Source: Escherichia phage p000v. Taken from it: a DNA stretch of 64,000 nt. Numbering within the stretch: position 1 is the first letter of the stretch; every line of letters begins with the position of its first letter. Under the pieces are notes generated by a model that saw nothing but the letters and a program-made list of their open reading frames with translations, did no database searches and had not been told where the DNA came from. This document shows, piece after piece, positions 711-63,839 of the stretch. The position numbers and the translations under genes were made by a program. The DNA is taken from sequence record NC_055781.1; one strand, written 5' to 3'.

Positions 711-715
711 ATGTG

Positions 716-734
716 GGGACCTTCGGGTCCCTTT
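716..734 (+). terminator. hairpin GGGACC-UUCG-GGUCCC followed by short T run
   Basis: Perfect 6 bp stem with UUCG tetraloop directly after stop of 444-710 ORF. Confidence 0.5.
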
Positions 735-14720: not shown

Positions 14721-14933
14721 GAGAAATTGATTTAGGCATTTTCTGAGAGGTGCTTATGCATGACGAACATCCCGACTTCTGAAAATTTCGATAAAATCCG
14801 TAAAGGCAAAGCAGAAAGAATGAGACGTTTTAAAGAGTCTTATGATAAAGCTAAAGCCGAAGGAACTATTACGTACAAGCCCATTCGATTTAAAAGTTCA
14901 AATGAGCCTTTGTACGGTGTACTATGTGGATAG

Positions 14934-14957
14934 GAACTCTTCGGAGTTCCTTTTTTG
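14934..14957 (+). terminator. rho-independent terminator GGAACUC-UUCG-GAGUUCC + U6
   Basis: 7 bp stem, UUCG loop, TTTTTT tail. Confidence 0.6.
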
Positions 14958-15002
14958 CTTTATAAACGGATGATAGAATGAATTAACTAATGAGGAAATA
15001 AT

Positions 15003-19588: not shown

Positions 19589-19663
19589 GTCAAAGCTTTA
19601 CGTTTAATGTAGTACGATTATGGAGGAGAAATCCTCCAGTTTAATGATAATGAGGAAAATTAC

Positions 19664-21562: not shown

Positions 21563-21567
21563 AGCAA

Positions 21568-21586
21568 TGGGACTTCGGTCCCATTT
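21568..21586 (+). promoter_or_regulatory. hairpin UGGGAC-UUCG-GUCCCA (terminator or RNA stability element)
   Basis: 6 bp stem with UUCG loop, only 3 T after. Confidence 0.4.
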
Positions 21587-21615
21587 GGAGTATAATAAGT
21601 TCATCAACAAACAAA

Positions 21616-21631
21616 AGACAATAACTCGTCT
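21616..21631 (+). promoter_or_regulatory. candidate gp43 translational operator hairpin (AGAC-AAUAACUC-GUCU)
   Basis: Short stem with 8-nt loop AAUAACUC 12 nt upstream of gene 43 ATG. Confidence 0.5.
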
Positions 21632-32218: not shown

Positions 32219-32552
32219 TCTCGATGATTTAAATCTAGAAATCGTTGATGAATCCCCTTCTTCGGAAGGGGAAGACATTCGCAAAGAACGAGTGTTTAAT
32301 GAATCTCTTAAAATTATCCGTTCAGCAATGGAAAATGTCATTCAAGAGATTCTGATTACACTTGAAGATGGTTCTCATCATATAGTCTATATTACAAAAC
32401 TAGACTGGGTTGATGGTAAAATCGTAATGGACTTTGCAGTTCTTGACCAGGACAGAAAAGCAGAACTTGCACCACATGTTGAAAAATGTGTTACAATGCA
32501 AGTACAACAAGCTTTTAATGAACGAACCAAGAAAAAATTTAAATTCTTTTAA
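32211..32552 (+). CDS. 40: gp40-like protein (position of T4 gene 40)
   Basis: Synteny between uvsX and 41; ATG overlaps uvsX 3' end. Confidence 0.6.
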   Translation: MNNLDDLNLEIVDESPSSEGEDIRKERVFNESLKIIRSAMENVIQEILITLEDGSHHIVYITKLDWVDGKIVMDFAVLDQDRKAELAPHVEKCVTMQVQQAFNERTKKKFKFF

Positions 32553-34004: not shown

Positions 34005-34010
34005 TAAAAA

Positions 34011-34029
34011 GGAGACTTCGGTCTCCTTT
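34011..34029 (+). terminator. hairpin GGAGAC-UUCG-GUCUCC + UUU
   Basis: 6 bp stem with UUCG loop right after gene 41. Confidence 0.55.
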
Positions 34030-34033
34030 CGGG

Positions 34034-34063
34034 GTTTACATCTTCCTCTAGGCATGATATGAT
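34034..34063 (+). promoter_or_regulatory. candidate early promoter GTTTAC ... TATGAT
   Basis: GTTTAC at 34034-34039, -10-like TATGAT 18 nt downstream. Confidence 0.4.
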
Positions 34064-39618: not shown

Positions 39619-39627
39619 ATAATTTAA

Positions 39628-39651
39628 GGAATCCTTCGGGATTCCTTTTTT
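39628..39651 (+). terminator. rho-independent terminator GGAAUCC-UUCG-GGAUUCC + U6
   Basis: 7 bp stem, UUCG loop, TTTTTT. Confidence 0.65.
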
Positions 39652-39719
39652 CGTTTCTAGAGTTTACATCTACTAAAAACTGTGTTAAGATATTCTTACT
39701 TACTCAAGAGGAGAACAAT

Positions 39720-48108: not shown

Positions 48109-48531
48109 ATGGCTTTTAAAGGTTTTGAAGTTGGTAAGAAATATCGTATTATCAAAGGTCAAGAAGATAATTTCTTGAGAATTCTTAATACGACTGGTAA
48201 ACGTCTTAACACTACTCTGCATACAGTTTTATTATCAAGAGATTTTATTGTAGAAGAGATGATTGGCTACGGTGTTTCAATGATTGCCGCTGAAACCGAT
48301 GGACCTGGACGTACAATCATTAGTATGCAAGGTGATATTCTAATTTACGGTGCAGAATTTAAATTCTTTGAAGAAGTTCAGGAACCAGATACAGCTGTCG
48401 ATTTCAAAAAAGGCTCTATAGAATTTGTTGATGGTTCGGTGATCGTATCAGGCGATGTGGTCATTACAGTTAAAAGTGAACAAGGGCGTTTGGCTGCAAT
48501 TGATGCACTTCAGAAAATTAAATTTAAATAA
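48109..48531 (+). CDS. hypothetical protein
   Basis: ORF track 140 aa. Confidence 0.5.
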   Translation: MAFKGFEVGKKYRIIKGQEDNFLRILNTTGKRLNTTLHTVLLSRDFIVEEMIGYGVSMIAAETDGPGRTIISMQGDILIYGAEFKFFEEVQEPDTAVDFKKGSIEFVDGSVIVSGDVVITVKSEQGRLAAIDALQKIKFK

Positions 48532-48548
48532 GGGCTTCGGCCCTTTTT
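48531..48548 (+). terminator. hairpin AGGGC-UUCG-GCCCU + U5
   Basis: 5 bp stem, UUCG loop, TTTTT. Confidence 0.55.
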
Positions 48549-48594
48549 GCTTTAGATTTCGGATGATAGAATACCTTCATAACGAGGAGACAAC

Positions 48595-50415
48595 ATGATT
48601 AAAAATGAAATTAAGGTATTGTCGGATGTAGAACATATTAAGAAACGTAGTGGCATGTATATTGGTTCTTCTGCTAAAGAAGCCCACGAGCGTTTTTTGT
48701 TTGGTAAATATCAACAAGTTGAATATGTTCCTGGTCTGGTTAAATTAATCGATGAGATTATTGACAACTCGGTTGATGAAGCTATTCGTACATCATTTAA
48801 GTTTGCAAATAAAATTGATGTGCAAATTAAAAATAATCAAGTTTCGGTGGAAGATAACGGACGTGGTATTCCTCAAGGTTTAGTTACCGACCAAACAGGT
48901 GAACAAATTCCTGGGCCTGTAGCAGCCTGGACTATTCCAAAGGCCGGTGGTAACTTTGGTGATGACTCTGAACGTAAGACTGGTGGTATGAACGGCGTCG
49001 GGAGTAGTTTAACTAATATCTTCTCTACGTTGTTTACAGGCATCACGTCAGATGGCGAAAATGAAATCACTGTTAACTGTTCAAACGGAATGGAAAACAA
49101 ATCATGGTCTTCTAAGAAATCTAAAGGTAAAGGCACTAAAGTAATCTTCACTCCTGATTTCACTTCATTTGAAGAGCATAATTTATCTCAAATTTATTTA
49201 GATATTACTTTAGACCGACTTCAAACATTGGCAGTCGTTTATCCTGATATCAAGTTCACATTTAATGGTAAAAAGGTCGATGGTAATTTTAAACGATTTG
49301 CTAAACAATTTGGTGAAGATAACATCATTCAAGAAAATGATAAAGTCTCTATAGCATTCACAACATCACCAGATGGCTTCCGTCATTTAACTTATGTGAA
49401 TAACATCCATACTAAAAATGGTGGACATCATGTTGAATGTGTAATGGACGATATCTGCGAACATCTTTTGCCGGGTATTAAAAAGAAATATAAGGGTATT
49501 GAAGTCACTAAAGCTCGTGTTAAAGAATGTCTCACAATGTTGATGTTTATTAGAGACATGAGCAACATGCGTTTTGATTCTCAGACTAAAGAACGTTTAA
49601 CGTCAACGTACGGTGATATTCGTAATCATATCCAATTAGATGCTAAGAAAATTGCTCAGGCACTTCTTAAAAATGAAGCCTTGATTATGCCTATTGTTGA
49701 AGCAGCATTAGCTCGTAAATTGGCGGCAGAAAAGGCTGCAGAAACTAAAGCAGCTAAAAAGGCAACTAAAGCTAAGGTTCATAAGCATATTAAAGCTAAC
49801 CAATGTGGTAAAGATGCAGATACGACATTGTTTTTAACAGAAGGTGATTCGGCAATTGGATATCTCATTGATGTTCGTGACCGTGAACTACATGGTGGAT
49901 TCCCATTACGTGGTAAGGTGATGAATAGCTGGGGTATGTCATATGCTGATATGATGAAGAACAAAGAGCTCTTTGATATCTGTGCTATCACGGGTCTTAT
50001 TCTTGGTGAAAAAGCAGAGAATACGAACTATCGTAATATTGCAATTATGACCGATGCCGATCATGACGGCCTTGGAAGTATTTATCCTGCTTTGCTTGCT
50101 TTCTTTAGTAATTGGCCTGAATTGTTTGAACAAGGACGTATTCGCTTTGTTAAAACACCTGTAATTATTGCACAAATTGGCAAAACTCAAAAATGGTTTT
50201 ATACTGTAGCTGAGTATGAAGAAGTTAAAGATACACTGCCTAAGCATAGTATTCGATACATCAAGGGATTGGGCTCACTTCAGCGGGATGAATATAAAGA
50301 AATGATTCAAAACCCTGTGTACGACGTAGTTAAACTTCCTGAAAATTGGAAAGAACTATTTGAAATGCTCATGGGTAACGACCCTGAACTCCGTAAAGAT
50401 TGGATGCTAGGATAA
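48595..50415 (+). CDS. 39: topoisomerase II large subunit (GyrB-like ATPase plus TOPRIM), single uninterrupted ORF
   Basis: GHKL motifs IDEIIDNSVDEA and DNGRGIP; TOPRIM LFLTEGDSA and DADHDG; 606 aa. Confidence 0.92.
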   Translation: MIKNEIKVLSDVEHIKKRSGMYIGSSAKEAHERFLFGKYQQVEYVPGLVKLIDEIIDNSVDEAIRTSFKFANKIDVQIKNNQVSVEDNGRGIPQGLVTDQTGEQIPGPVAAWTIPKAGGNFGDDSERKTGGMNGVGSSLTNIFSTLFTGITSDGENEITVNCSNGMENKSWSSKKSKGKGTKVIFTPDFTSFEEHNLSQIYLDITLDRLQTLAVVYPDIKFTFNGKKVDGNFKRFAKQFGEDNIIQENDKVSIAFTTSPDGFRHLTYVNNIHTKNGGHHVECVMDDICEHLLPGIKKKYKGIEVTKARVKECLTMLMFIRDMSNMRFDSQTKERLTSTYGDIRNHIQLDAKKIAQALLKNEALIMPIVEAALARKLAAEKAAETKAAKKATKAKVHKHIKANQCGKDADTTLFLTEGDSAIGYLIDVRDRELHGGFPLRGKVMNSWGMSYADMMKNKELFDICAITGLILGEKAENTNYRNIAIMTDADHDGLGSIYPALLAFFSNWPELFEQGRIRFVKTPVIIAQIGKTQKWFYTVAEYEEVKDTLPKHSIRYIKGLGSLQRDEYKEMIQNPVYDVVKLPENWKELFEMLMGNDPELRKDWMLG

Positions 50416-51212
50416 TGAATTATCGTAAAATTTATGATAAACTTATCGCTGCGGCTAAAAACCGCAGCACTATTCCTAATTATACTGAAACTCACCATAT
50501 TTTGCCTAAATCTATGGGTGGGAGTAATGCTAAATCAAATCTAGTTAAAATGACCCCTAGAGAGCATTTTATCGCCCATTTATTGCTTTATAAAATTCAT
50601 AAGAACCGTTCTATGCTTATGGCTATTAGAGCTTTTTACATGGGAGCTAGAAATTCTAGAGATTATGATTGGCTTAAACAAGAATTCTCTAAAGAGCACT
50701 CTAGATTTATGAAAGAATGGATTGCTAAAAATGGCAACCCATTTAAAGGTAAAAAACATACTAAAGCAACAAGAGAATTAATGTCACATATTGCTTCACA
50801 ACGTATAGGCGAATTAAATCCGTTTTATGGTAAAACTCATACGCAAGAAGCAATAGATAAAATAATACAGGCCAACAAGTTATCTTGGGAGAATGGGCGA
50901 AAAGCACCTGTAAAAACAAAAGAACACCAGGATAAAATAACTAAATCAAGAATGGAAACATTTAAAACAAAAGGATTTAAACCATACACTCCTAGGTCGG
51001 AAGAAACTAAAGCTAAGACTAGAGAGTTGTATAAATCTAAATATGAAAGAAGGCCTATAAGAATCACAAGTGTAAAAACAGGTGAAACTATTGATTTTAA
51101 CTATCTTTATGAATTAAGGGAGTATTTAGGTATAGGGTCTTCTAATATATTGAAAGCATTAAATAATCCTAACAGAACCTGCAAAGGTTATAAAATGTGT
51201 TGGATGTCCTAA
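50415..51212 (+). CDS. HNH homing endonuclease with NUMOD3-like repeats
   Basis: ETHHILPKSMGG...N...REH HNH motif; repeated NPF(K/Y)GK.HT motifs; start overlaps gene 39 stop (TAATG). Confidence 0.8.
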   Translation: MNYRKIYDKLIAAAKNRSTIPNYTETHHILPKSMGGSNAKSNLVKMTPREHFIAHLLLYKIHKNRSMLMAIRAFYMGARNSRDYDWLKQEFSKEHSRFMKEWIAKNGNPFKGKKHTKATRELMSHIASQRIGELNPFYGKTHTQEAIDKIIQANKLSWENGRKAPVKTKEHQDKITKSRMETFKTKGFKPYTPRSEETKAKTRELYKSKYERRPIRITSVKTGETIDFNYLYELREYLGIGSSNILKALNNPNRTCKGYKMCWMS

Positions 51213-51235
51213 GCTCCTTCGGGAGCTTCATTTTA
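51211..51235 (+). terminator. hairpin AAGCUCC-UUCG-GGAGCUU followed by T-rich run
   Basis: 7 bp stem with UUCG loop. Confidence 0.5.
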
Positions 51236-51254: not shown

Positions 51255-52355
51255 ATGAAAGTTATGTTTATCCCATCTCGCGCAGTCCCATTTAACCCAG
51301 AACGTGTACAAGGTGGTCTTGAAGCAGTACATTTAAATGTATTGAAATATCTTGTGTCCATCGGTGCTGATATTGATTATATCGGCTTTGATAATGACAC
51401 GTTTGGTGACTGGAAGGTTAATCATCATCCTGTTGGTCATCTGACTAAATTCAGTCTAGGTATGAGTTATACTATGGCTCGTAAGATTGTTGAACTAGCC
51501 GGCATCCATGAATACGATTTTGTTGTTACTATGGAACCGACTAAACTAACCGTTCAGGCAATTAAAGACGCAGGTCTCTCTAAAGTTCATAAGAATTTTA
51601 TGGCAACACCATTTGAACCGGTATCTCGTGGCATTGTTCAAATTTGGGACCAGACTATTCAAATTCATAAGAATGGTGGTAAGAGTTATGCTCCTACTAA
51701 AGCCTTCCGTGAATTTGAACGCAAATATTGTTATATGACTTCAGGTCTGACTGACAAAATTGATTATGATTATTGGCGAGCAAATCCGTTGTTTGAAGCC
51801 GAAGATTATCCGGTTATTTGTTTGACTGAAAAGCCAGAAGTTCTTCCGGCGACGGATCTGATTATTAGTGCACAACGTTATGACACTAAAATGCGTCGTA
51901 CTGATGTTGCTCTTGAAGCGATTAAAGCACTAGGCGAAAATGGTGCAGGATACTGTCCTAGTAAATGGGCACCACCAGCTAAATATCCTGTTATTATTGA
52001 TGCTCCACACAGCGAAATCATGGAACGTCTTAAAACAGCTAAAGCACTTATCAATACGTGTCCTGACACGGGTACGGTAGAGAATAGTTCTATTGAAGCC
52101 ATCTCTAAAGGTGTCCCTGTGATTCAGTTAGTTTTTAAGGATTATCCGCACGCGACATTCGAATATGACCCAGATACTGTGCGTGTAGAAATTGATTCCT
52201 CTACTCCTAAGAAAGAAGTAGTTGCGCTTTACACAAAAGCTGTATTAGAATTCACTGACACATACGAAGCTCGAGTTAAACGTGCTGAAGCAGTATGGAA
52301 GAAGTATAACCGAGATGCAGTTGTTGCGATGTGGGATAAAATCTTCACAGCGTAA
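51255..52355 (+). CDS. GT-B fold glycosyltransferase (candidate DNA hmC pentosyl/arabinosyl transferase)
   Basis: N-terminus MKVMFIPSRAV...GGLE and C-terminal ...GTVENSSIEAISKGVPVIQ resemble GT4-type GT-B motifs; 366 aa; lies between gene 39 and rIIA. Confidence 0.75.
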   Translation: MKVMFIPSRAVPFNPERVQGGLEAVHLNVLKYLVSIGADIDYIGFDNDTFGDWKVNHHPVGHLTKFSLGMSYTMARKIVELAGIHEYDFVVTMEPTKLTVQAIKDAGLSKVHKNFMATPFEPVSRGIVQIWDQTIQIHKNGGKSYAPTKAFREFERKYCYMTSGLTDKIDYDYWRANPLFEAEDYPVICLTEKPEVLPATDLIISAQRYDTKMRRTDVALEAIKALGENGAGYCPSKWAPPAKYPVIIDAPHSEIMERLKTAKALINTCPDTGTVENSSIEAISKGVPVIQLVFKDYPHATFEYDPDTVRVEIDSSTPKKEVVALYTKAVLEFTDTYEARVKRAEAVWKKYNRDAVVAMWDKIFTA

Positions 52356-52660: not shown

Positions 52661-54874
52661 ATGATTATTGAAACGGCTAAAGAAACGATTATTGGTTCAG
52701 GCGGTAAGAGCACAGCATTCACTATTCAAGGCAATAGCAAAGTTTATAAGATTTTGTCTAATGACCTTTATACAAACAAAGAATTGGCTTGTGTACGTGA
52801 ATTAATTACAAACTGTATCGATGGACAAATTCTTAACGGTTGCACTGATAAGTTTATTGTTCAGGCTCCAGGTCGTTTAGACCCACGCTTTGTAGTTCGA
52901 GACTTTGGTCCTGGTATGAGCGATTTCACCATTAGAGGTAATGACGAAGAGCCAGGAATCTATAACTCATATTTTGCTTCAACTAAAACATCGAGTAACG
53001 ATTTCATCGGTGGATTCGGACTCGGTTCTAAAGCTCCGCTAGCATATACCGATACGTTTAACCTTACGTCTTATCACAACGGTGAAGTTCGTGGTTACGT
53101 AATCTACCAAGATGACACAGGTCCACAAATTAAGCCGACCTTCGTAGATAAGATGGGTCCTGATGACCGTACGGGTGTAGAAGTAGTTGTACCGGTTAAC
53201 CCGGAAGATTTTGAAAAGTTCGCATCCGAAATTGCATATGTTATGCGTCCTCTAGGTGATATTGCAGAAGTTCGTGGTGTTAAAGATATTAAATACTTCC
53301 CGGAATTTGACGATGTATATTTGGCCAAGGAAGCTCCATGGGGTGAACGTGGTAATATCATGGCTGTTTATGGCGGTATTGTATATCCAATCGGAAGCGT
53401 TATTAAAGAACAAACATGGATGATGACACGATGCACTACAGCTTATATTAAATTCCCTATGGGTGAACTAGATGTAGCTCCGTCTCGTGAAGCATTGTCA
53501 TTTGATAAACGTACGGTAGCAAATATCCATAAACGCGTTGCAGAAATCGATGCTAAATTGTTCGCTGAAGATTCTAAGAAATGGATTGATTGTAAATACC
53601 CACGTCATGTGTTCCGTGAAATTGATTCTCTTGGCTATACCGCTCGTAAATACATGGAAAAGGCTGGGTCTAATATTGAATCACTGAAATACTCTAAAGA
53701 ACAACTAACTTATTCTGAGTTGTACAAACGTTTTAAAATGGGGCCTGAGTGGTGTAATCTTGGTGTCGTATACGATATCGTTGAATCCCCTCGTCTTCGT
53801 CGTATTCGTGAAAGTGGTAGCTCAACGGCAACCATTTCAATTAACAGTCTGATTGGCATTAACATTAAAAACGTTGAAATTGTTATTGACGACGTTAAGG
53901 GACGCGTTCCATTAATGCGAGCTCTTAATTCAATTGAAATGTCTAAAGACGAGGTTAAATTAACTGGTAAAGTTCCACGCGGTTTTGGTAAAAGCGTACT
54001 ATTCGTTGACCCTACAGACGAAGATGCAATGAAACTTCTGGAACGCCTTAAAGTTATCTTTGATGGCGACAACATTAACATGTACAAGACTTCAGAGCTT
54101 TTACAAATCGTTAAGCCATGGATTGAAGTCAGGAAACGGACTAATGAGCCTCGTCCTAAATCGCCAAGTGCTCATCGATTCTTTAAGAATGAAAACGATG
54201 TTTGGGTATCAGAAGACCTCTTTATTCCGGCAAGTGAAGCAGATGAAATCCAAGGTTATGCTATAGTTCGTAATCGTTCTAATGCTGAATGTCTTGACGC
54301 AGATAAAGGTTGGTTGAACTATGACTCCAATTTCTTGACCCGTATTGCTGATTTGTCAGGTATTAAAGAGTTCACTGTAGTTCGTCCACAGATTGCTAAG
54401 AAAGTTCGTAAACTTGGTGAAGTAGAATGTTTGTTCGAAAAATCAATTAATGACTATATTACGCTAATCGATAAAGTGGATTATGATGAGTATGTATCAC
54501 CAAGTCGTAGAGCACAGCCTTATTTGAATCATATTACTCGTAATGAAGAGCTTAACTTCCTTAGTAAGTATTTTAGCTCTAAGAACAAAGAAATCAGTAA
54601 AGACTTTGCAAAACTCTCAACAGTAAATAATCGTTGGGGATGGAATCGATTCGCAGGTGCTACTAATACAGACATGAATAAGAAGTTAGAACTGTGTGCT
54701 AAAATTTTCGATAAGCTTAAAGATAATGCTTACGATAATGATGATAAAATGGTTATTGAATTCGAAACCAATTATCATATTGTGTCAGAATACATGGGAC
54801 GACGTGGTACTCTTTCCAAAGAACAGGTCGCTCAAATCGTTAAATTCATGAAGGCCGTGGAAGCGGCCAAATAA
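52661..54874 (+). CDS. rIIA: rIIA protein
   Basis: 737 aa; N-terminal GHKL-like motif RELITNCIDG; synteny with rIIB. Confidence 0.85.
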   Translation: MIIETAKETIIGSGGKSTAFTIQGNSKVYKILSNDLYTNKELACVRELITNCIDGQILNGCTDKFIVQAPGRLDPRFVVRDFGPGMSDFTIRGNDEEPGIYNSYFASTKTSSNDFIGGFGLGSKAPLAYTDTFNLTSYHNGEVRGYVIYQDDTGPQIKPTFVDKMGPDDRTGVEVVVPVNPEDFEKFASEIAYVMRPLGDIAEVRGVKDIKYFPEFDDVYLAKEAPWGERGNIMAVYGGIVYPIGSVIKEQTWMMTRCTTAYIKFPMGELDVAPSREALSFDKRTVANIHKRVAEIDAKLFAEDSKKWIDCKYPRHVFREIDSLGYTARKYMEKAGSNIESLKYSKEQLTYSELYKRFKMGPEWCNLGVVYDIVESPRLRRIRESGSSTATISINSLIGINIKNVEIVIDDVKGRVPLMRALNSIEMSKDEVKLTGKVPRGFGKSVLFVDPTDEDAMKLLERLKVIFDGDNINMYKTSELLQIVKPWIEVRKRTNEPRPKSPSAHRFFKNENDVWVSEDLFIPASEADEIQGYAIVRNRSNAECLDADKGWLNYDSNFLTRIADLSGIKEFTVVRPQIAKKVRKLGEVECLFEKSINDYITLIDKVDYDEYVSPSRRAQPYLNHITRNEELNFLSKYFSSKNKEISKDFAKLSTVNNRWGWNRFAGATNTDMNKKLELCAKIFDKLKDNAYDNDDKMVIEFETNYHIVSEYMGRRGTLSKEQVAQIVKFMKAVEAAK

Positions 54875-54883
54875 GGAAACATT

Positions 54884-55831
54884 ATGTACAATATCAAATG
54901 CTTGTCCCAAGAAGAACAGTTAGAAGCTTACGGCCTGGTTGAATCAGGCAAATGGACTCGTAAAGAAATTGCCGATTACTTCGACATTTCAACAGATACT
55001 CTTCGTAAGATTGTTAAGAATTTTAAAGCAGAAGGCGTTGTCCCTGAAGCAAACGATGCCTCTTATGTAATCGAAGAAGTTCCAGAAAATGATGAACCTA
55101 TTATCGGCGGACATCGTCCTGAAATCGTATGGAACGCGTCATCTAAATTTATTTCAATTATTGAAGGACGCGTAGCATACAATGCGACCCCATCAAGTCA
55201 TGCAAATTTTGAAGAAATTAAAGCTAATCTGGTCGCAGGAAACCTTAGTAAAGCTGTCGAACTTATTAACATCAAGAAAGCTATTAGTAAGTTTGTTGAC
55301 GGTAATGTTGTTATTGAAGGTGGTAGTTTATTTTATCAAGGTATAGAGATTCGTTCTGGCCTGGTTAATCGTATTATTGATTCCATGGAAAAAGGCGAAG
55401 ACTTTAAATTCTATCTGCCGTTCCTTGAAAACCTGTTAGAAAACCCAAGCGAAAAAGCTGTACAACGTTTATTCGACTTCTTGGTTGCAAACGATATTGA
55501 AATCACTGAAGATGGGTATTTCTATGCGTGGAAAGTAGTTCGTAAGGACTATTTAGACTGCTATAGTGGTACATTTGATAACTCCCCAGGTAAAGTTGTT
55601 TCAATGCCTCGTACTCGAGTTAACGACGATGATACTCAAACCTGTTCTCGCGGTCTCCACGTTTGTGCTAAATCTTATATTCGCCACTTTGGTTCAAGCT
55701 CAGATAAAGTTGTGAAAGTTAAAGTTCATCCACGTGATGTTGTATCCATCCCGGTTGACTACGGTGATGCTAAGATGCGTACTTGTCGTTATGAAGTAAT
55801 TTCAGACGTTACTGAATTATTTGCAGAATAA
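54884..55831 (+). CDS. rIIB: rIIB protein
   Basis: MYNIKCL ... IEGGSLFYQ.IE.RSGLV.RI.DSMEKGE.F.FY.PFLENLLENPS.KAV.RLFDFLVANDIEITEDGYFYAWKVV matches recalled T4 rIIB. Confidence 0.9.
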   Translation: MYNIKCLSQEEQLEAYGLVESGKWTRKEIADYFDISTDTLRKIVKNFKAEGVVPEANDASYVIEEVPENDEPIIGGHRPEIVWNASSKFISIIEGRVAYNATPSSHANFEEIKANLVAGNLSKAVELINIKKAISKFVDGNVVIEGGSLFYQGIEIRSGLVNRIIDSMEKGEDFKFYLPFLENLLENPSEKAVQRLFDFLVANDIEITEDGYFYAWKVVRKDYLDCYSGTFDNSPGKVVSMPRTRVNDDDTQTCSRGLHVCAKSYIRHFGSSSDKVVKVKVHPRDVVSIPVDYGDAKMRTCRYEVISDVTELFAE

Positions 55832-55836
55832 TAATT

Positions 55837-55859
55837 GGGGACTTCGGTCCCCTTTTTTT
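55837..55859 (+). terminator. rho-independent terminator GGGGAC-UUCG-GUCCCC + U7
   Basis: 6 bp GC-rich stem, UUCG loop, TTTTTTT. Confidence 0.65.
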
Positions 55860-55873
55860 CTTTAGGGGTAATT

Positions 55874-56161
55874 ATGATTCATCCATTTGACGTATCAGAA
55901 TCCAAAATTGCTAATCTTCGTGGTCATCATAAGTGTAAATCAGTTTATTGTGCTAAATTGGTAAAACATCCTGGTGATGCACACTACGGCTGGTTAGAAT
56001 GCGACGAAGTTGTTATTGAAATCCCGCCTGTAGATGCAGAATATCTTGAAGAAGGAGACCGCATTTATTTTGGCGAACTACACATCAGAGGTATCTATGG
56101 TAAAGACGAACTTGGGACTGTTGAGGCTGAAGAATCTTCCGACATTTATCCTGTCGAATGA
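55874..56161 (+). CDS. hypothetical protein
   Basis: Internal ATG downstream of terminator hairpin. Confidence 0.45.
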   Translation: MIHPFDVSESKIANLRGHHKCKSVYCAKLVKHPGDAHYGWLECDEVVIEIPPVDAEYLEEGDRIYFGELHIRGIYGKDELGTVEAEESSDIYPVE

Positions 56162-56177: not shown

Positions 56178-56654
56178 ATGAAGGTTAAGATCGCTGATAC
56201 TGCTCGGTACTCGTTGAAACAAGATCCAGGTCAAATAAAAGAAGACGTTGTTCGACGTTGTAAGGTTGCAGTCTTTGCAGAGTATGTAGTAGCAAATTGG
56301 CTAGACGGATATGTTAATAAAGGTAATGAAGACGTAGAAGACCCGTACACGTATGCATGGGACGTTTTAGCTCATCCTAAGTACTGTGGTCTACGCATAG
56401 AAGTAAAGACCCATCAGATGGATTCGAAATGGATTTCGGTTACCACAGGATACAGTGGTGATTATCCGGGTGGTAACGGAATCAACATAGGGCCCTTCTT
56501 GAACCATCGAGTCGCTGACTGTATTATTATATTGAATGTCAAAGAAACCTCACCTGACGTCTTCTCTTATTCTATAAAGTTCGTGGGAGACCATGAAGAC
56601 CTAAAGAAAATCGTCCGCAAGAGCAACTACAACGGATGGTATCTTCATCTTTAA
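56178..56654 (+). CDS. hypothetical protein
   Basis: First ATG after upstream stop; tracked ORF extends 5' into previous gene. Confidence 0.45.
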   Translation: MKVKIADTARYSLKQDPGQIKEDVVRRCKVAVFAEYVVANWLDGYVNKGNEDVEDPYTYAWDVLAHPKYCGLRIEVKTHQMDSKWISVTTGYSGDYPGGNGINIGPFLNHRVADCIIILNVKETSPDVFSYSIKFVGDHEDLKKIVRKSNYNGWYLHL

Positions 56655-58304: not shown

Positions 58305-59630
58305 ATGCAATTGAATTCTCGTAATCTAAAAAGTATTATTGATAACGAAGCCTTAGCATATGCGATGTACACCGTTGAAAACCGTGCAATCCCAAACATG
58401 ATTGATGGATTTAAGCCGGTTCAACGTTTTGTGGTTCATCGTGCATTAGATTTGGCTCGTGGTAATAAAGAAAAATTTCATAAACTTGCGTCAATTGCAG
58501 GCGGTGTCGCAGATTTAGGTTATCACCATGGTGAATCTTCTGCACAAGATGCAGGTGCATTAATGGCTAACACATGGAACAACAACTATCCACTGTTAGA
58601 TGGTCAAGGCAACTTTGGTTCTCGAACAGTCCAAAAAGCTGCAGCATCTCGTTATATTTTTGCTCGTGTAAGTAAAAATTTCTATAACGTATATAAAGAT
58701 ACTGAATATGCTCCAGCTCATGAAGATAAAGAACACGTTCCACCAAAATTCTATCTTCCTATTATTCCGACAGTTCTTTTGAATGGCGTCTCTGGTATTG
58801 CAACCGGTTACGCAACAAATATTCTGCCTCATAGTTTTAAATCGGTAAAAAAGGCTGTATTACAAGCTCTTCAAGGTAAAAATGTCACTAAGCCAAAAGT
58901 TGAATTCCCGGAATTCCGTGGTGAAGTGCATGAAGTTGATGGGCGTTATGAGATTCACGGAACATATAAGTTCACATCTCGTACTCAAATGCAGATAACT
59001 GAAATCCCATATAAATTCGACCGTGAAACGTATGTGAGTAAGGTTCTCGACCCGTTGGAAGACAAAGGTCTAATCTCATGGGAAGATGATTGTGGTGAAC
59101 ACGGCTTTGGGTTTAAGGTGAAGTTCCGTAAAGAGTACTCGCTTCCTGATGATGAAGAGCTACGTCATGAAAAAATCATGAAAGATTTTAGTCTCATCGA
59201 ACGTCGTTCACAAAACATCACAGTGATTAATGAAAAGGGTAAATTAGCTGTCTATGATAACGTAGTGGACTTAATCAAAGATTTTGTTGAAGTCCGTAAG
59301 ACTTACGTTCAGAAACGTATTGACAACAAAATCCTTGAATCTGAAAAAGCATTTAAACTGGCTTTTGCTAAGGCACACTTCATCAAAAAAGTTATCAACG
59401 GTGAAATTGTGATTCAGGGCAAGACTCGTAAAGCTTTGACTGAAGAGCTAGCACAAATCGAAATGTATAAAGAACATGTCGATAAACTGGTAGGTCTTAA
59501 CATCTTCCATATCACTTCCGATGAAGCACGTAAACTAGCAGAAGAAGCTAAAGCTAAGAAAGAAGAAAATGAGTATTGGAAGTCTACTGATGTTGTGACA
59601 GAGTACACTAAAGACTTGGAGGCACTTTGA
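58305..59630 (+). CDS. 52: topoisomerase II medium subunit gp52 (GyrA-like)
   Basis: 441 aa; winged-helix active-site region AASRYIFARV with catalytic Tyr. Confidence 0.92.
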   Translation: MQLNSRNLKSIIDNEALAYAMYTVENRAIPNMIDGFKPVQRFVVHRALDLARGNKEKFHKLASIAGGVADLGYHHGESSAQDAGALMANTWNNNYPLLDGQGNFGSRTVQKAAASRYIFARVSKNFYNVYKDTEYAPAHEDKEHVPPKFYLPIIPTVLLNGVSGIATGYATNILPHSFKSVKKAVLQALQGKNVTKPKVEFPEFRGEVHEVDGRYEIHGTYKFTSRTQMQITEIPYKFDRETYVSKVLDPLEDKGLISWEDDCGEHGFGFKVKFRKEYSLPDDEELRHEKIMKDFSLIERRSQNITVINEKGKLAVYDNVVDLIKDFVEVRKTYVQKRIDNKILESEKAFKLAFAKAHFIKKVINGEIVIQGKTRKALTEELAQIEMYKEHVDKLVGLNIFHITSDEARKLAEEAKAKKEENEYWKSTDVVTEYTKDLEAL

Positions 59631-59707
59631 GTGCCCTAGCCTTAGGATTTCTCGGTGCAATAGCTGCACTAGTGATTTGGCTGTATTGGTTGGACAAACA
59701 TGATTAG

Positions 59708-59726
59708 GGAGCTTCGGCTCCTTTTT
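59708..59726 (+). terminator. hairpin GGAGC-UUCG-GCUCC + U5
   Basis: 5 bp stem, UUCG loop, TTTTT. Confidence 0.55.
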
Positions 59727-59741
59727 GTGCATTTTTCTCAC

Positions 59742-59775
59742 AAAACAGTTTACACGTGCTTCAAACATGATATTA
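59742..59775 (+). promoter_or_regulatory. candidate early promoter GTTTAC-N17-TATTAT
   Basis: AGTTTACA ... GATATTATAAACCTATC upstream of motA. Confidence 0.45.
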
Positions 59776-59820
59776 TAAACCTATCAAAACAAAACAAAAC
59801 AACCGAATTGGAGAAATAAA

Positions 59821-63808: not shown

Positions 63809-63839
63809 ATTATAAAAAGGGACCGAAGTCCCTTCTCCT
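63809..63839 (-). promoter_or_regulatory. split ribosome-binding site of gene 38: GGAG, hairpin GGGAC-UUCG-GUCCC, then AUG
   Basis: On minus strand GGAG lies about 25 nt 5' of ATG; the intervening 14 nt form a perfect tetraloop hairpin. Confidence 0.5.

Follow-up and report, generated by a model that had tools for sequence, protein, structure and literature searches.

C(UUCG)G tetraloop hairpins at the cistron boundaries of the T4-like Escherichia phage p000v

C(UUCG)G hairpins were first recognised in the intercistronic regions of bacteriophage T4, and the 'split' Shine-Dalgarno region of gene 38 has become the textbook case of an RNA structure that enhances the initiation of translation. 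CUUCGG hairpins are plentiful in T4 intergenic regions (Tuerk et al. 1988, as related in PMC8948821), UUCG is common in the intergenic stem-loops and terminators of this phage (PMC1702504), and the C(UUCG)G motif in general displays a thermal stability above nearest-neighbour expectation (Tuerk 1988, as related in PMC12170181). A T4 terminator combines a GC stem with a 4-nt loop and a poly(U) stretch, and may even lie within the 5' coding sequence of a gene, as in mobE and segF, with approximately 30% termination at mobE (PMC2988022). According to PMC12152347, a T4 stem-loop upstream of gene 41 lies just 5' of an in vivo 3' end, and the abundance of transcripts that end at the gene 40 stem-loop changes in rho RNA-binding mutants and with GoF(D25Y), a variant whose action was shown to be post-transcriptional (same source, with PMC2988021). 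At T4 gene 38, the hairpin shortens the spacing between Shine-Dalgarno sequence and AUG from 22 nt to 5, and initiation drops when mutations destabilise the hairpin (PMC3014915); gene 25 likewise has a split Shine-Dalgarno region (Nivinskas et al. 1999, reviewed in PMC3014915). Literature searches for T4 Term-seq or RNA-seq 3'-end data found none.

Escherichia phage p000v (NC_055781.1) is an RB69-group (Mosigvirus) T4-like phage, with 97-98% nucleotide identity to Mosigvirus phages and the gene order of T4. The stretch of DNA that was analysed (the 'window', 64,000 nt) carries its early and middle genes on the + strand. It contains a real, non-random, sense-strand set of hairpins at cistron boundaries, which we take, with a probability of roughly 0.85, to be this phage's set of extra-stable C(UUCG)G tetraloops, acting in RNA and with a role set by context. 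The finding is a rediscovery of known T4 biology: the reuse of one hairpin type for different roles, which the original prediction put forward as notable, was already the subject of Tuerk et al. 1988 (as far as that study is related in PMC8948821 and PMC1702504). Its value lies in annotation, where plausible transcription-unit boundaries can be told apart from hairpins that must be leaky.

A sense-strand set of hairpins and its conservation

Both strands of the window were scanned for perfect stems around TTCG, and hairpins were counted if the stem comprised at least 5 bp and at least 3 GC pairs. The 11 strong C(UUCG)G hairpins that were found, ten on the + strand and one on the - strand, compare with a mean of 0.055 and a maximum of 2 in 200 dinucleotide shuffles:

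715..732, + strand: hairpin GGGGACC-UUCG-GGUCCCU, 4 nt past the stop of ORF 444-710, no U-tract
14932..14951, + strand: hairpin AGGAACUC-UUCG-GAGUUCCU, overlapping the stop of a 57-aa a-gt.2-like ORF, then U5
21566..21585, + strand: hairpin AAUGGGAC-UUCG-GUCCCAUU, 3 nt past the regA stop, no U-tract
32253..32272, + strand: hairpin UCCCCUUC-UUCG-GAAGGGGA, in gene 40 at codons 15-21 (SPSSEGE), 8-bp stem, -13.5 kcal/mol
34008..34029, + strand: hairpin AAAGGAGAC-UUCG-GUCUCCUUU, past the gene 41 stop, weak U-tract
39626..39647, + strand: hairpin AAGGAAUCC-UUCG-GGAUUCCUU, past soc, then a U-tract
48530..48545, + strand: hairpin AAGGGC-UUCG-GCCCUU, overlapping the stop of ORF 48109-48531, then a U-tract
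51211..51228, + strand: hairpin AAGCUCC-UUCG-GGAGCUU, native 3' hairpin of gene 39
55837..55852, + strand: focal hairpin GGGGAC-UUCG-GUCCCC, 6 nt past the rIIB stop (55829-55831), -10.8 kcal/mol
59706..59723, + strand: hairpin AGGGAGC-UUCG-GCUCCUU (one G.U pair), overlapping the stop of a 26-aa ORF after gene 52
63814..63837, - strand: gene 38 hairpin, with the core AAGGGAC-UUCG-GUCCCUU at 63834-63817

Ten of these had been listed in the original prediction, and all ten exist, within 1-3 nt of the positions given; the strong eleventh, at 32253-32272 (+), had been overlooked. C-TTCG-G reads on the transcribed strand at 11 of 11 sites, every hairpin is sense-oriented relative to its local genes, and the stems of 715 and 59706 contain G.U pairs that would turn into mismatches if the other strand were transcribed; the common orientation and the strand-specific G.U pairs together indicate that the hairpins act at the level of RNA. 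Nearly all CTTCGG hexamers of the + strand (10 of 11) fall within such hairpins, and C(TTCG)G is the most frequent class of hairpin with a 4-nt loop on that strand (10 of 55). The stems comprise 6-10 bp, where 5-7 bp had been predicted, with 4-5 GC pairs and -8.8 to -13.5 kcal/mol, and all 11 hairpins are present in the minimum-free-energy fold with flanks of about 15 nt. Their fold z-scores are modest (only -1.3 to -3.75), as is expected of short purine/pyrimidine-split hairpins, which survive shuffling (PMC12170181).

The description of the family as near-identical copies of GGGAC-UUCG-GUCCC does not hold, since the GGGAC/GUCCC stem is found only at 21566, 55837 and 63837 (-), and the part common to the whole family is the loop with its closing C-G pair. 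The exact 14-mer GGGACTTCGGTCCC occurs in 3 copies, against 0.03 expected. That most hairpins follow a stop codon was predicted correctly: the codon is overlapped by the hairpin, or lies 0-8 nt before it, at 10 of 11 sites, the exception being 32253 (35 nt past the uvsX stop, and lacking a U-tract). A search of the whole window against Rfam at gathering thresholds returned no match. One further site was considered as a member of the family and dismissed as chance, being weak, antisense and intragenic:

44173-44160, - strand: weak 5-bp C(UUCG)G site, -3.6 kcal/mol, antisense inside a gene

The T4 record AF158101 contains 23 CUUCGG hairpins, among them counterparts of seven of the present sites (the gene 38 initiation region, regA-43, gene 40, soc 3', upstream of 39, upstream of 47/a-gt, and nrdC.11/nrdC.10, where hairpin 715 sits upstream of the nrdC.10 homologue and its T4 counterpart lies at 55433-55414). 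The T4 clade has a hairpin at the orthologous position for 8 of the 11 sites, the eighth being the rIIB 3' hairpin, which is bulged in the T4 record and perfect in T4-like relatives; at a ninth site, upstream of motA, the T4 counterpart has a different loop. Hairpin 34008 is confined to the Mosigvirus clade. Position is kept with differing stems after rIIB, upstream of motA, after soc, and upstream of 47 and 39. At regA-43, 14 distinct sequences display 95.5% of cells paired, changes on both sides in 7 of 8 pairs, and a covariation value reached in 0 of 500 shuffles, figures that carry a bias toward pairing because the covariation alignments take the best hairpin per positionally defined window. 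Paired synonymous changes in the gene 40 hairpin (CCC/GAG to CCU/GAA) preserve its pairing.

The loop is also exchanged, with GAAA, UACG or UCCG in place of UUCG at a fixed site, which argues that stability, and not the UUCG sequence, is what is conserved. The 45-44 intergenic region, with a C(UUCG)G hairpin in T4, has a GNRA loop here:

19621..19638, + strand: GAAA hairpin UGGAGGA-GAAA-UCCUCCA, in the 45-44 intergenic region

Across T4-like genera, positions are conserved and stems and tetraloop class turn over, which points to selection on stability at a position and not on sequence. The combination of positional counterparts, different stems and compensatory changes indicates that the hairpins are selected RNA structures and not a mobile repeat.

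Terminator-like hairpins and hairpins before the next cistron

We infer termination, 3'-end protection and translational enhancement in this phage from the anatomy of the hairpins and from the T4 literature. A short G+C-rich stem capped by UUCG would fold quickly and very stably at a cistron boundary, and what follows the stem would then set its role. The first 8 nt past the stem contain at least 6 T only at 14932, 39626, 48530 and 55837 (6-7 of 8); the count is 4 of 8 at 51211 and 59706, borderline against a threshold of 5 U in 8 nt, and 2-3 of 8 at 715, 21566, 32253 and 34008. The predicted T-run is therefore present at about half of the hairpins, if 59706 is included. Terminator rules pick up five hairpins, whereas the five of 11 that have no convincing U-tract are no more than candidate terminators, assigned to attenuation or exonuclease protection by analogy.

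Motif searches of the window returned 22 early-type promoter matches (2.7 expected) and 15 MotA-box middle-type matches (3.3 expected). Six hairpins are followed by promoter-like motifs, three of them clear early-type, one weak early-type (AAAAAGTAGTGTACA...TACTAT, after hairpin 715) and two MotA-box:

14956..14979, + strand: MotA-box middle-promoter-like motif TGCTTTA-N11-TAGAAT, upstream of gene 47
34034..34063, + strand: early-type promoter motif GTTTACA-N17-TATGAT, directly past hairpin 34008
39662..39691, + strand: early-type promoter motif, downstream of the putative soc terminator
48548..48572, + strand: MotA-box middle-promoter-like motif TGCTTTA-N12-TAGAAT, upstream of gene 39
59748..59776, + strand: early-type promoter motif, upstream of motA

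An early promoter had been expected after most hairpins, and this stands for the three clear motifs (34034, 39662, 59748) and, weakly, after 715; the motifs after 14932 and 48530 are of the MotA-box middle type instead, and none was found after 21566, 32253, 51211 and 55837. Where a U-tract and a nearby downstream promoter come together (14932, 39626, 48530, 59706), the hairpin would be an intrinsic terminator, closing the upstream unit just before an early or a MotA-dependent middle promoter, and 34008 and 715 may play the same part more weakly. Judged by its sequence, hairpin 39626 has the anatomy of a canonical intrinsic terminator; 59706 is followed by UUUGUGCAUUUUU, and its U-tract is borderline. 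The hairpin upstream of gene 47 (14932) is kept in many clades, and the upstream T residues of the MotA motif at 14956..14979 are the U-tract of this putative terminator.

At 21566, 32253, 51211 and 55837, the next cistron follows directly (genes 43, 40-41, the ORF at 51255, and denB). Neither of the two T4 promoter motif searches (early, MotA) found a match after these hairpins; a general sigma-70 scan covered, among the four, only the 55837 (rIIB-denB) interval. If the downstream genes are expressed, then with no promoter motif between, these four cannot be efficient terminators, and attenuation or 3'-end protection is the more likely role. Each, 55837 included despite its U7, could then serve only as a partial terminator or pause site, or as a barrier to 3' exonucleases, and such a leaky stop or 3' barrier would fix the relative amounts of upstream and downstream message. 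The terminator role that had been proposed for the family thus fits several members, which combine intrinsic-terminator anatomy with a position upstream of promoters, and, as full termination, does not suit the four after which no promoter motif was found.

The focal hairpin, after rIIB, combines both kinds of feature:

55853..55859, + strand: U7 tract directly past the focal hairpin, a terminator-like site in a rule-based scan

Hairpins with other stems occupy the orthologous post-rIIB position in 18 related loci. The U7 is lineage-specific: close relatives have T5 and other genera none, their hairpins abutting the Shine-Dalgarno sequence of the next gene without a U-tract, so that the terminator anatomy of 55837 is recent and its effect may be small. 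Downstream lie an ORF at 55874 and then denB; the general sigma-70 scan of the + strand found no site from 55852 until a weak one at 56499, inside denB, and the search for MotA-type motifs found none between 55852 and 56499, which implies read-through of the focal hairpin.

At regA-43, the hairpin is followed by a conserved GGAGUAUAAU and then by the gp43 operator hairpin. The idea that the DNA of this hairpin is at the same time a MotA box (with ACTT/GCTT at its centre and a conserved TATAAT downstream) was rejected as a general explanation, given a spacing of 13 bp here against 15 bp in T4 and the clades with UACG, GAAA or UCCG loops, in which the CTT core is absent, yet hairpin and TATAAT persist. 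A CUUCGG hairpin is the sole strong perfect-stem hairpin in the T4 region upstream of gene 41, and the stem-loop described in PMC12152347 is probably this T4 orthologue of 32253. Hairpin 51211 now lies past an inserted homing-endonuclease ORF, with the next ORF starting 27 nt downstream, and is also present in relatives without the homing-endonuclease gene.

Competing explanations

A possible but less likely alternative is that the hairpins are mainly mRNA stability elements that block 3'-to-5' exonucleases, protecting messages after endonucleolytic cleavage or downstream termination, with termination minor or secondary even where a U-tract is present. Such a role would agree with the preservation of structure at U-tract-less sites in many genera, with a loop interchangeable among ultra-stable tetraloops, and with the response of T4 gene 40 3' ends to rho mutants and GoF(D25Y) (PMC12152347, PMC2988021), but textbook terminator anatomy and conserved U-tracts directly upstream of promoters are features that protection alone does not need.

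It is quite unlikely that all + strand hairpins are efficient rho-independent terminators of early transcripts. Their G+C-rich stems do stand at or after stop codons, five match terminator rules, and the six promoter-like motifs that follow could restart transcription; however, only 2-3 T per 8 nt are found at 715, 21566, 32253 and 34008, and the rIIB-hairpin orthologues elsewhere abut the next Shine-Dalgarno sequence without a U-tract. Moreover, the hairpins ahead of genes 43 and 40-41, of the ORF at 51255, and of denB with the ORF at 55874 are followed by no promoter motif in the two T4 motif searches or, for the rIIB-denB interval, in the general sigma-70 scan, so that full termination would silence genes, some of them essential.

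We give very little credence to a small mobile or recombinogenic DNA repeat (REP- or MITE-like), or a palindrome bound by protein at the DNA level, as the source of the family. The three copies of GGGACTTCGGTCCC and the hairpin that adjoins a homing-endonuclease insertion could be read in this way, but the three identical cores share no flanking similarity, the other eight stems differ, and the endonuclease-adjacent hairpin is present in relatives that have no such gene. Sites orthologous with T4 differ by compensatory changes, not by presence and absence, and the transcribed strand reads UUCG in 11 of 11 cases and never CGAA, with G.U pairs that hold only in RNA of the sense strand. Gene conversion among the hairpins, or concerted evolution, was also considered in view of the GGGAC/GUCCC stems at three loci here where T4 has GGGGC/GCCCC; since other clades have the same stem at different loci, the limited sequence space of short G+C-rich stems is explanation enough. 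Chance palindromes in an A+T-rich genome, for which the modest individual z-scores and the probable chance origin of 44173-44160 might be cited, can practically be discounted in the face of 11 hairpins (0.055 expected, at most 2 in 200 shuffles) that are conserved and covary across genera.

Within the preferred reading of a tetraloop set with roles set by context, some hairpins may be more than passive stable stem-loops, and two conserved arrangements might be regulatory modules, an idea that we consider doubtful: the composite of terminator and MotA box, and the U-tract-less hairpins before or inside cistrons. No description of these two arrangements as regulatory modules was found in the literature searched. 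In the composite, the U-tract of a C(UUCG)G terminator would double as the T-rich 5' part of a MotA box (CCCUU-UUUGCUUUA-N11-12-TAnnnT), an overlap that many Tevenvirinae clades keep in front of genes 47 and 39. If real, this module would control when early read-through gives way to MotA-dependent expression, and the U-tract-less hairpins (regA-43, uvsX-40, rIIB-next ORF) would act as adjustable sites of 3'-end formation or attenuation, recognised by RNA-binding proteins of the phage, for instance those of the GoF/LSm-like family.

Comparison with known systems

Hairpins 14932, 39626, 48530 and 55837 resemble the rho-independent terminators of E. coli and T4 in their G+C-rich stem, 4-nt loop and U-tract, with 59706 a borderline case; unlike such terminators, about half of the family lacks a U-tract and four members precede cistrons without a promoter motif, so the family as a whole is not a terminator set. 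Hairpin 32253, in the first 21 codons of gene 40 and just past the upstream stop, is placed like the intragenic terminators of mobE and segF, but it has no U-tract, and the in vivo 3' end of its T4 orthologue responds in abundance to rho and goF alleles (PMC12152347).

With the C(UUCG)G family of T4, the present set shares the loop, the closing pair, the short G+C-rich stems and the intergenic, sense-strand preference. It differs in its stems, which are often GGGAC/GUCCC where T4 has GGGGC/GCCCC, in the Mosigvirus-specific hairpin after gene 41 (34008), and in the absence of the T4 gene 60 bypass hairpin, gene 39 being unsplit in this phage.

A further correspondence is with the split Shine-Dalgarno region of gene 38, whose product is 65% identical to its T4 orthologue:

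63835..63838, - strand: gene 38 Shine-Dalgarno GGAG, with the AUG at 63808-63806

As predicted, one hairpin separates the Shine-Dalgarno sequence of gene 38 from the AUG, and the T4 orthologue of this hairpin is a published translational enhancer (PMC3014915). The 18-nt core is wholly contained between the two elements, whose spacing is 26 nt unfolded and 8 nt (UUUAUAAU) with the hairpin folded; by taking 18 nt out of the 26 nt that part GGAG from AUG, the hairpin would create a workable 8-nt spacing, inside the range of about 5-11 nt. An extension of the stem by three weak pairs into the GAG of the Shine-Dalgarno sequence is predicted. Here the stem is followed by a U5 run, and the annotation of a related genome lists a putative terminator at the site. 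The split arrangement was found in 9 sequences from 4 genera (an IMG/VR search with gp38, which gave 3 loci, and 5 GenBank phage records), with stem variants that include a G.U intermediate. Sequence comparison identifies the hairpin as the orthologue of the T4 split Shine-Dalgarno element, and its anatomy suggests that it is a translational enhancer in this phage as well. Relative to T4, the spacing is 26 versus 22 nt unfolded and 8 versus about 5 nt folded, and the stem is one A-U pair longer, whereas the upstream sequence is the same and GGAG, C(UUCG)G hairpin and AUG follow one another in the same order.

The C(UUCG)G hairpin family and its setting

A scan for perfect stems flanking TTCG recovered all ten of the UUCG hairpins listed in the original prediction, at positions differing by 1-3 nt, and one further strong hairpin at 32253-32272 that had not been listed, giving a total of eleven; the observation of a hairpin family is thus confirmed.

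C(UUCG)G hairpins (UUCG loop closed by a C-G pair) in the window: start coordinate, strand; stop codon followed or overlapped; T residues in the 8 nt past the stem; sequence directly 3'
715, +; ORF 444-710; 2-3; weaker early-type match, AAAAAGTAGTGTACA...TACTAT
14932, +; 57-aa a-gt.2-like ORF; 6-7; MotA-box middle-promoter motif
21566, +; regA; 2-3; next cistron
32253, +; inside gene 40, 35 nt past the uvsX stop; 2-3; next cistron
34008, +; 41; 2-3; early-promoter motif
39626, +; soc; 6-7; early-promoter motif
48530, +; ORF 48109-48531; 6-7; MotA-box middle-promoter motif
51211, +; ORF ending at 51212; 4; next cistron
55837, +; rIIB; 6-7; next cistron
59706, +; 26-aa ORF after gene 52; 4; early-promoter motif
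63837, -; gene 37; U5, then gene 38

When stems of at least 5 bp with at least 3 GC pairs were counted, the eleven hairpins stood against a mean of 0.055 and a maximum of 2 across 200 dinucleotide shuffles. Among hairpins with a 4-nt loop, C(UUCG)G is the most frequent class by a wide margin; 10 of the 11 CTTCGG hexamers on the + strand sit within such hairpins, and the 14-mer GGGACTTCGGTCCC occurs in three exact copies (0.03 expected). The minimum-free-energy fold with flanks contains the hairpin at all eleven sites, with modest z-scores (-1.3 to -3.75) of the kind typical for short, purine/pyrimidine-split CUUCGG hairpins, which tend to outlast dinucleotide shuffling (PMC12170181). To describe the stems as ‘near-identical’ was an overstatement: GGGAC/GUCCC is found in three, the other eight differ, and the feature common to all is the loop with its closing C-G pair.

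Megablast places the window in the genus Mosigvirus (RB69 group) of the T4-like coliphages, where phages a20, SHSML-52-1, LF82-41 and vB_Eco_mar005P1 match it at 97-98% identity along 24-25 kb; its G+C content is 35-39% throughout. An ORF map, together with the annotation of a relative, shows the early and middle genes of the + strand in T4 order (47, 46, 45, 44, 62, regA, 43 ... uvsX, 40, 41 ... 61, 56, soc ... dda, dexA, motB ... 39, rIIA, rIIB, denB, ndd, 52, motA, asiA), and late genes t and 38 at the right end, encoded on the - strand. The ten hairpins of the + strand fall within units transcribed from that strand, the lone - strand hairpin within the - strand late unit; because each shares the strand of its local unit, every one is read as UUCG, not CGAA, in mRNA. 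Stems 715 and 59706 include G.U pairs; the opposite strand would have C.A mismatches in their place, which, with the transcribed-strand UUCG, points to a function in RNA rather than DNA. The predicted position after stop codons was also found, ten of the eleven beginning 0-8 nt past a stop or overlapping it. The 26-aa hydrophobic ORF ahead of hairpin 59706 (MSALALGFLGAIAALVIWLYWLDKHD, 59627-59707) starts at a TTG that overlaps the gene 52 stop and ends at a stop overlapping the hairpin; related phages carry an ATGA-overlapped equivalent (T4 motA.1-like).

Terminator-like tails and downstream promoter-like motifs

T4 terminators combine a GC-rich stem with a 4-nt loop and poly(U); some of them, situated in the 5' coding part of the following gene, stop no more than about 30% of transcripts (PMC2988022). 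The UUCG tetraloop is ‘often’ found on T4 intergenic stem-loops and terminators (PMC1702504). The proposed T-run is present after hairpins 14932, 39626, 48530 and 55837, borderline at 51211 and 59706, and weak at 715, 21566, 32253 and 34008; in agreement with these counts, a rule-based census assigns UUCG hairpins to five of about eight post-stop terminator-like sites on the + strand. The early promoter said to come next likewise holds in part, directly 3' of 34008, 39626 and 59706, more weakly after 715, and not elsewhere. Across the whole window the early-promoter motif (GTTTAC-N17-19-TAnnnT) has 22 matches against 2.7 expected, 20 of them on the + strand, where they mark the predicted early transcription units of the region.

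Hairpins 14932 and 48530 are followed instead by a middle-promoter motif (TGCTTTA-N11-12-TAGAAT, after the consensus in PMC2988021), and the T residues of the terminator tail are the 5' T-rich part of the MotA box. This continuity is seen at 14947-14979 (CCUUUUUUGCUUUA...) and 48541-48572 (CCCUUUUUGCUUUA...), with TAGAAT 11-12 nt later. Many T4-like clades keep the pairing of hairpin and MotA box ahead of genes 47 and 39; T4 has it after a-gt.2, a-gt and 39.1. Two motif searches found neither early-type nor MotA-type motifs 3' of 21566, 32253, 51211 and 55837.

The analysis demonstrates that the hairpins exist and are enriched, oriented, conserved and covarying; every functional step in this phage we infer. 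Common to all would be a quickly folding helix end of high stability, resistant to nucleases, at the border between cistrons. A hairpin with both a U-tract and a downstream promoter would most probably be an intrinsic terminator insulating transcription units, and terminators at 14932 and 48530 would leave the downstream genes dependent on a MotA middle promoter. Where no promoter lies downstream, the effect would be limited to reduced read-through, polymerase pausing, or protection of the upstream message against exonucleases at its 3' terminus.

The hairpin 3' of rIIB (GGGGAC-UUCG-GUCCCC, -10.8 kcal/mol) begins 6 nt past the stop and is followed by U7; judged by anatomy, this element (55837-55859) is the best candidate intrinsic terminator of the set. 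A 95-aa ORF starts 14 nt further 3' (ATG at 55874), with denB next, and no + strand sigma-70-like site was found from 55852 to a weak site at 56499, inside denB. Because the ORF and denB thus have no promoter motif ahead of them, the putative terminator must leak. At 18 related loci (IMG/VR) the hairpin found here has another stem (AAGGGC, GGAGGC or GGGGC) and now and then a UUUG or UCCG loop. The T-run is limited to the window's own clade, the hairpin elsewhere adjoining the Shine-Dalgarno of the next gene; the hairpin is therefore the conserved part and the terminator tail a recent addition. T4 has the hairpin too, bulged in the reference sequence: AF158101 (locus L002, 9940-9965) reads TAAGGCTTCGGCCCTT, lacking one G that a perfect stem would need, where T4-like relatives have TAAGGGCTTCGGCCCTT. 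The missing G reflects either a true deletion of 1 nt or a compression in old sequencing of a CUUCGG hairpin. A separate G+C-rich hairpin, GGCCGU-GGAA-GCGGCC, occupies the last codons of rIIA (54853-54868), shortly before the rIIB Shine-Dalgarno.

The gene 38 initiation region

One hairpin had been placed between the Shine-Dalgarno and the AUG of gene 38, and it is there: the - strand leader reads UAAGGAG-AAGGGAC-UUCG-GUCCCUU-UUUAUAAU-AUG, and the 26 nt from GGAG to AUG become 8 nt with the 18-nt hairpin folded. T4 has GGAG-AGGGGC-UUCG-GCCCUU-CUAAAU-AUG, with a spacing of 22 nt; according to PMC3014915, citing Nivinskas et al., the structure shortens this to 5 nt, and mutations that destabilise it reduce initiation. 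Here the hairpin would serve as an architectural spacer. Sequences from Tequatrovirus, Mosigvirus, Dhakavirus and Gaprivervirus share the arrangement; their stem variants include a G.U form intermediate between A-U and G-C, and the loop is occasionally UUAG or UUCU. A phage with divergent gp38 carries the hairpin upstream of the Shine-Dalgarno instead. U5 lies directly 3' of the stem in the window phage, and it might be speculated that the hairpin also attenuates transcription after gene 37. In MK327933.1 (phage vB_EcoM_G2285; locus L122, 95-110) the equivalent hairpin is annotated as a putative transcriptional terminator (-14.60), an example of automatic terminator calls misnaming a translational element.

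Conservation, covariation and comparison with T4

Several comparisons indicate that the structures are under selection, among them covariation in the regA-43 hairpin. Among 14 distinct sequences from RegA-encoding loci (RegA 50-100% identical), 95.5% of cells are paired, a value biased towards pairing in that the best stem was taken from a positionally defined window; seven of eight pairs changed on both sides, none of 500 shuffles equalled the observed value, and slid-partner controls were far lower. The loops include UUCG, UACG, UCCG, GAAA, UUAC and CGUG. The stretch from this hairpin to gene 43 (21588-21631) holds a GGAGTATAAT block, conserved across many genera, and an RB69-type gp43 translational operator hairpin, AGAC-AAUAACUC-GUCU (21616-21631).

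Within gene 40, codons 15-21 encode the peptide SPSSEGE such that hairpin 32253-32272 forms, and paired synonymous changes (CCC...GAG in T4, CCU...GAA in the window) leave the stem paired. In a distant clade the same place holds a GAAA-loop hairpin that encodes a different peptide, and another clade has a hairpin with a T-run in the uvsX-40 spacer. For the region upstream of T4 gene 41, PMC12152347 reports a stem-loop that immediately precedes an RNA 3' end seen in vivo; RNA ending there is more abundant in rho mutants, an effect that GoF(D25Y) opposes post-transcriptionally. The CUUCGG hairpin is the sole strong perfect-stem hairpin in that 362-nt region, and is therefore probably the stem-loop of that account.

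Stems at soc 3', upstream of 47 and upstream of 39 vary by compensatory pairs. Upstream of motA, three clades have C(UUCG)G loops capping stems of unrelated sequence followed by U-tracts, and T4 has CGAG or CUCG loops. Hairpin 51211 is the native 3' hairpin of unsplit gene 39, present in the close relative vB_Eco_mar005P1 without the endonuclease insert. That insert, an HNH-type homing-endonuclease ORF (50400-51212; phrog_655, E 7e-55), sits at the gene 39 3' end just before the hairpin; its last codons and the hairpin reproduce the original gene end (...GGATGTCCTAAGCTCC...).

The whole T4 record (AF158101), once assembled and scanned, yielded 23 CUUCGG hairpins, 20 on the early-gene strand. 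Those at equivalent positions lie in the gene 38 initiation region, at regA-43, inside gene 40, at soc 3', upstream of 39, at the a-gt.2 and a-gt 3' ends upstream of 47 (both then followed by MotA boxes) and at nrdC.11/nrdC.10. Hairpin 34008 is confined to the Mosigvirus clade, whereas the T4 gene 41 stop overlaps a promoter directly. Between 45 and 44, T4 has a C(UUCG)G hairpin and the window a GNRA hairpin (UGGAGGA-GAAA-UCCUCCA, 19621-19638); the tetraloop class has switched at a conserved position.

One hairpin type has reportedly been tied, by Tuerk et al. in 1988, to termination, mRNA stability, gene 60 bypass and initiation. The family was correctly noticed and for the most part correctly read, but the claim that reuse of one hairpin type is notable falls; as a discovery the family is of low importance. 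PMC8948821, citing Tuerk et al. 1988, describes CUUCGG hairpins as especially abundant in T4, mainly intergenic and able to block reverse transcriptase. The family is a real feature of already known T4 biology, and its detection here is the rediscovery of a classic.
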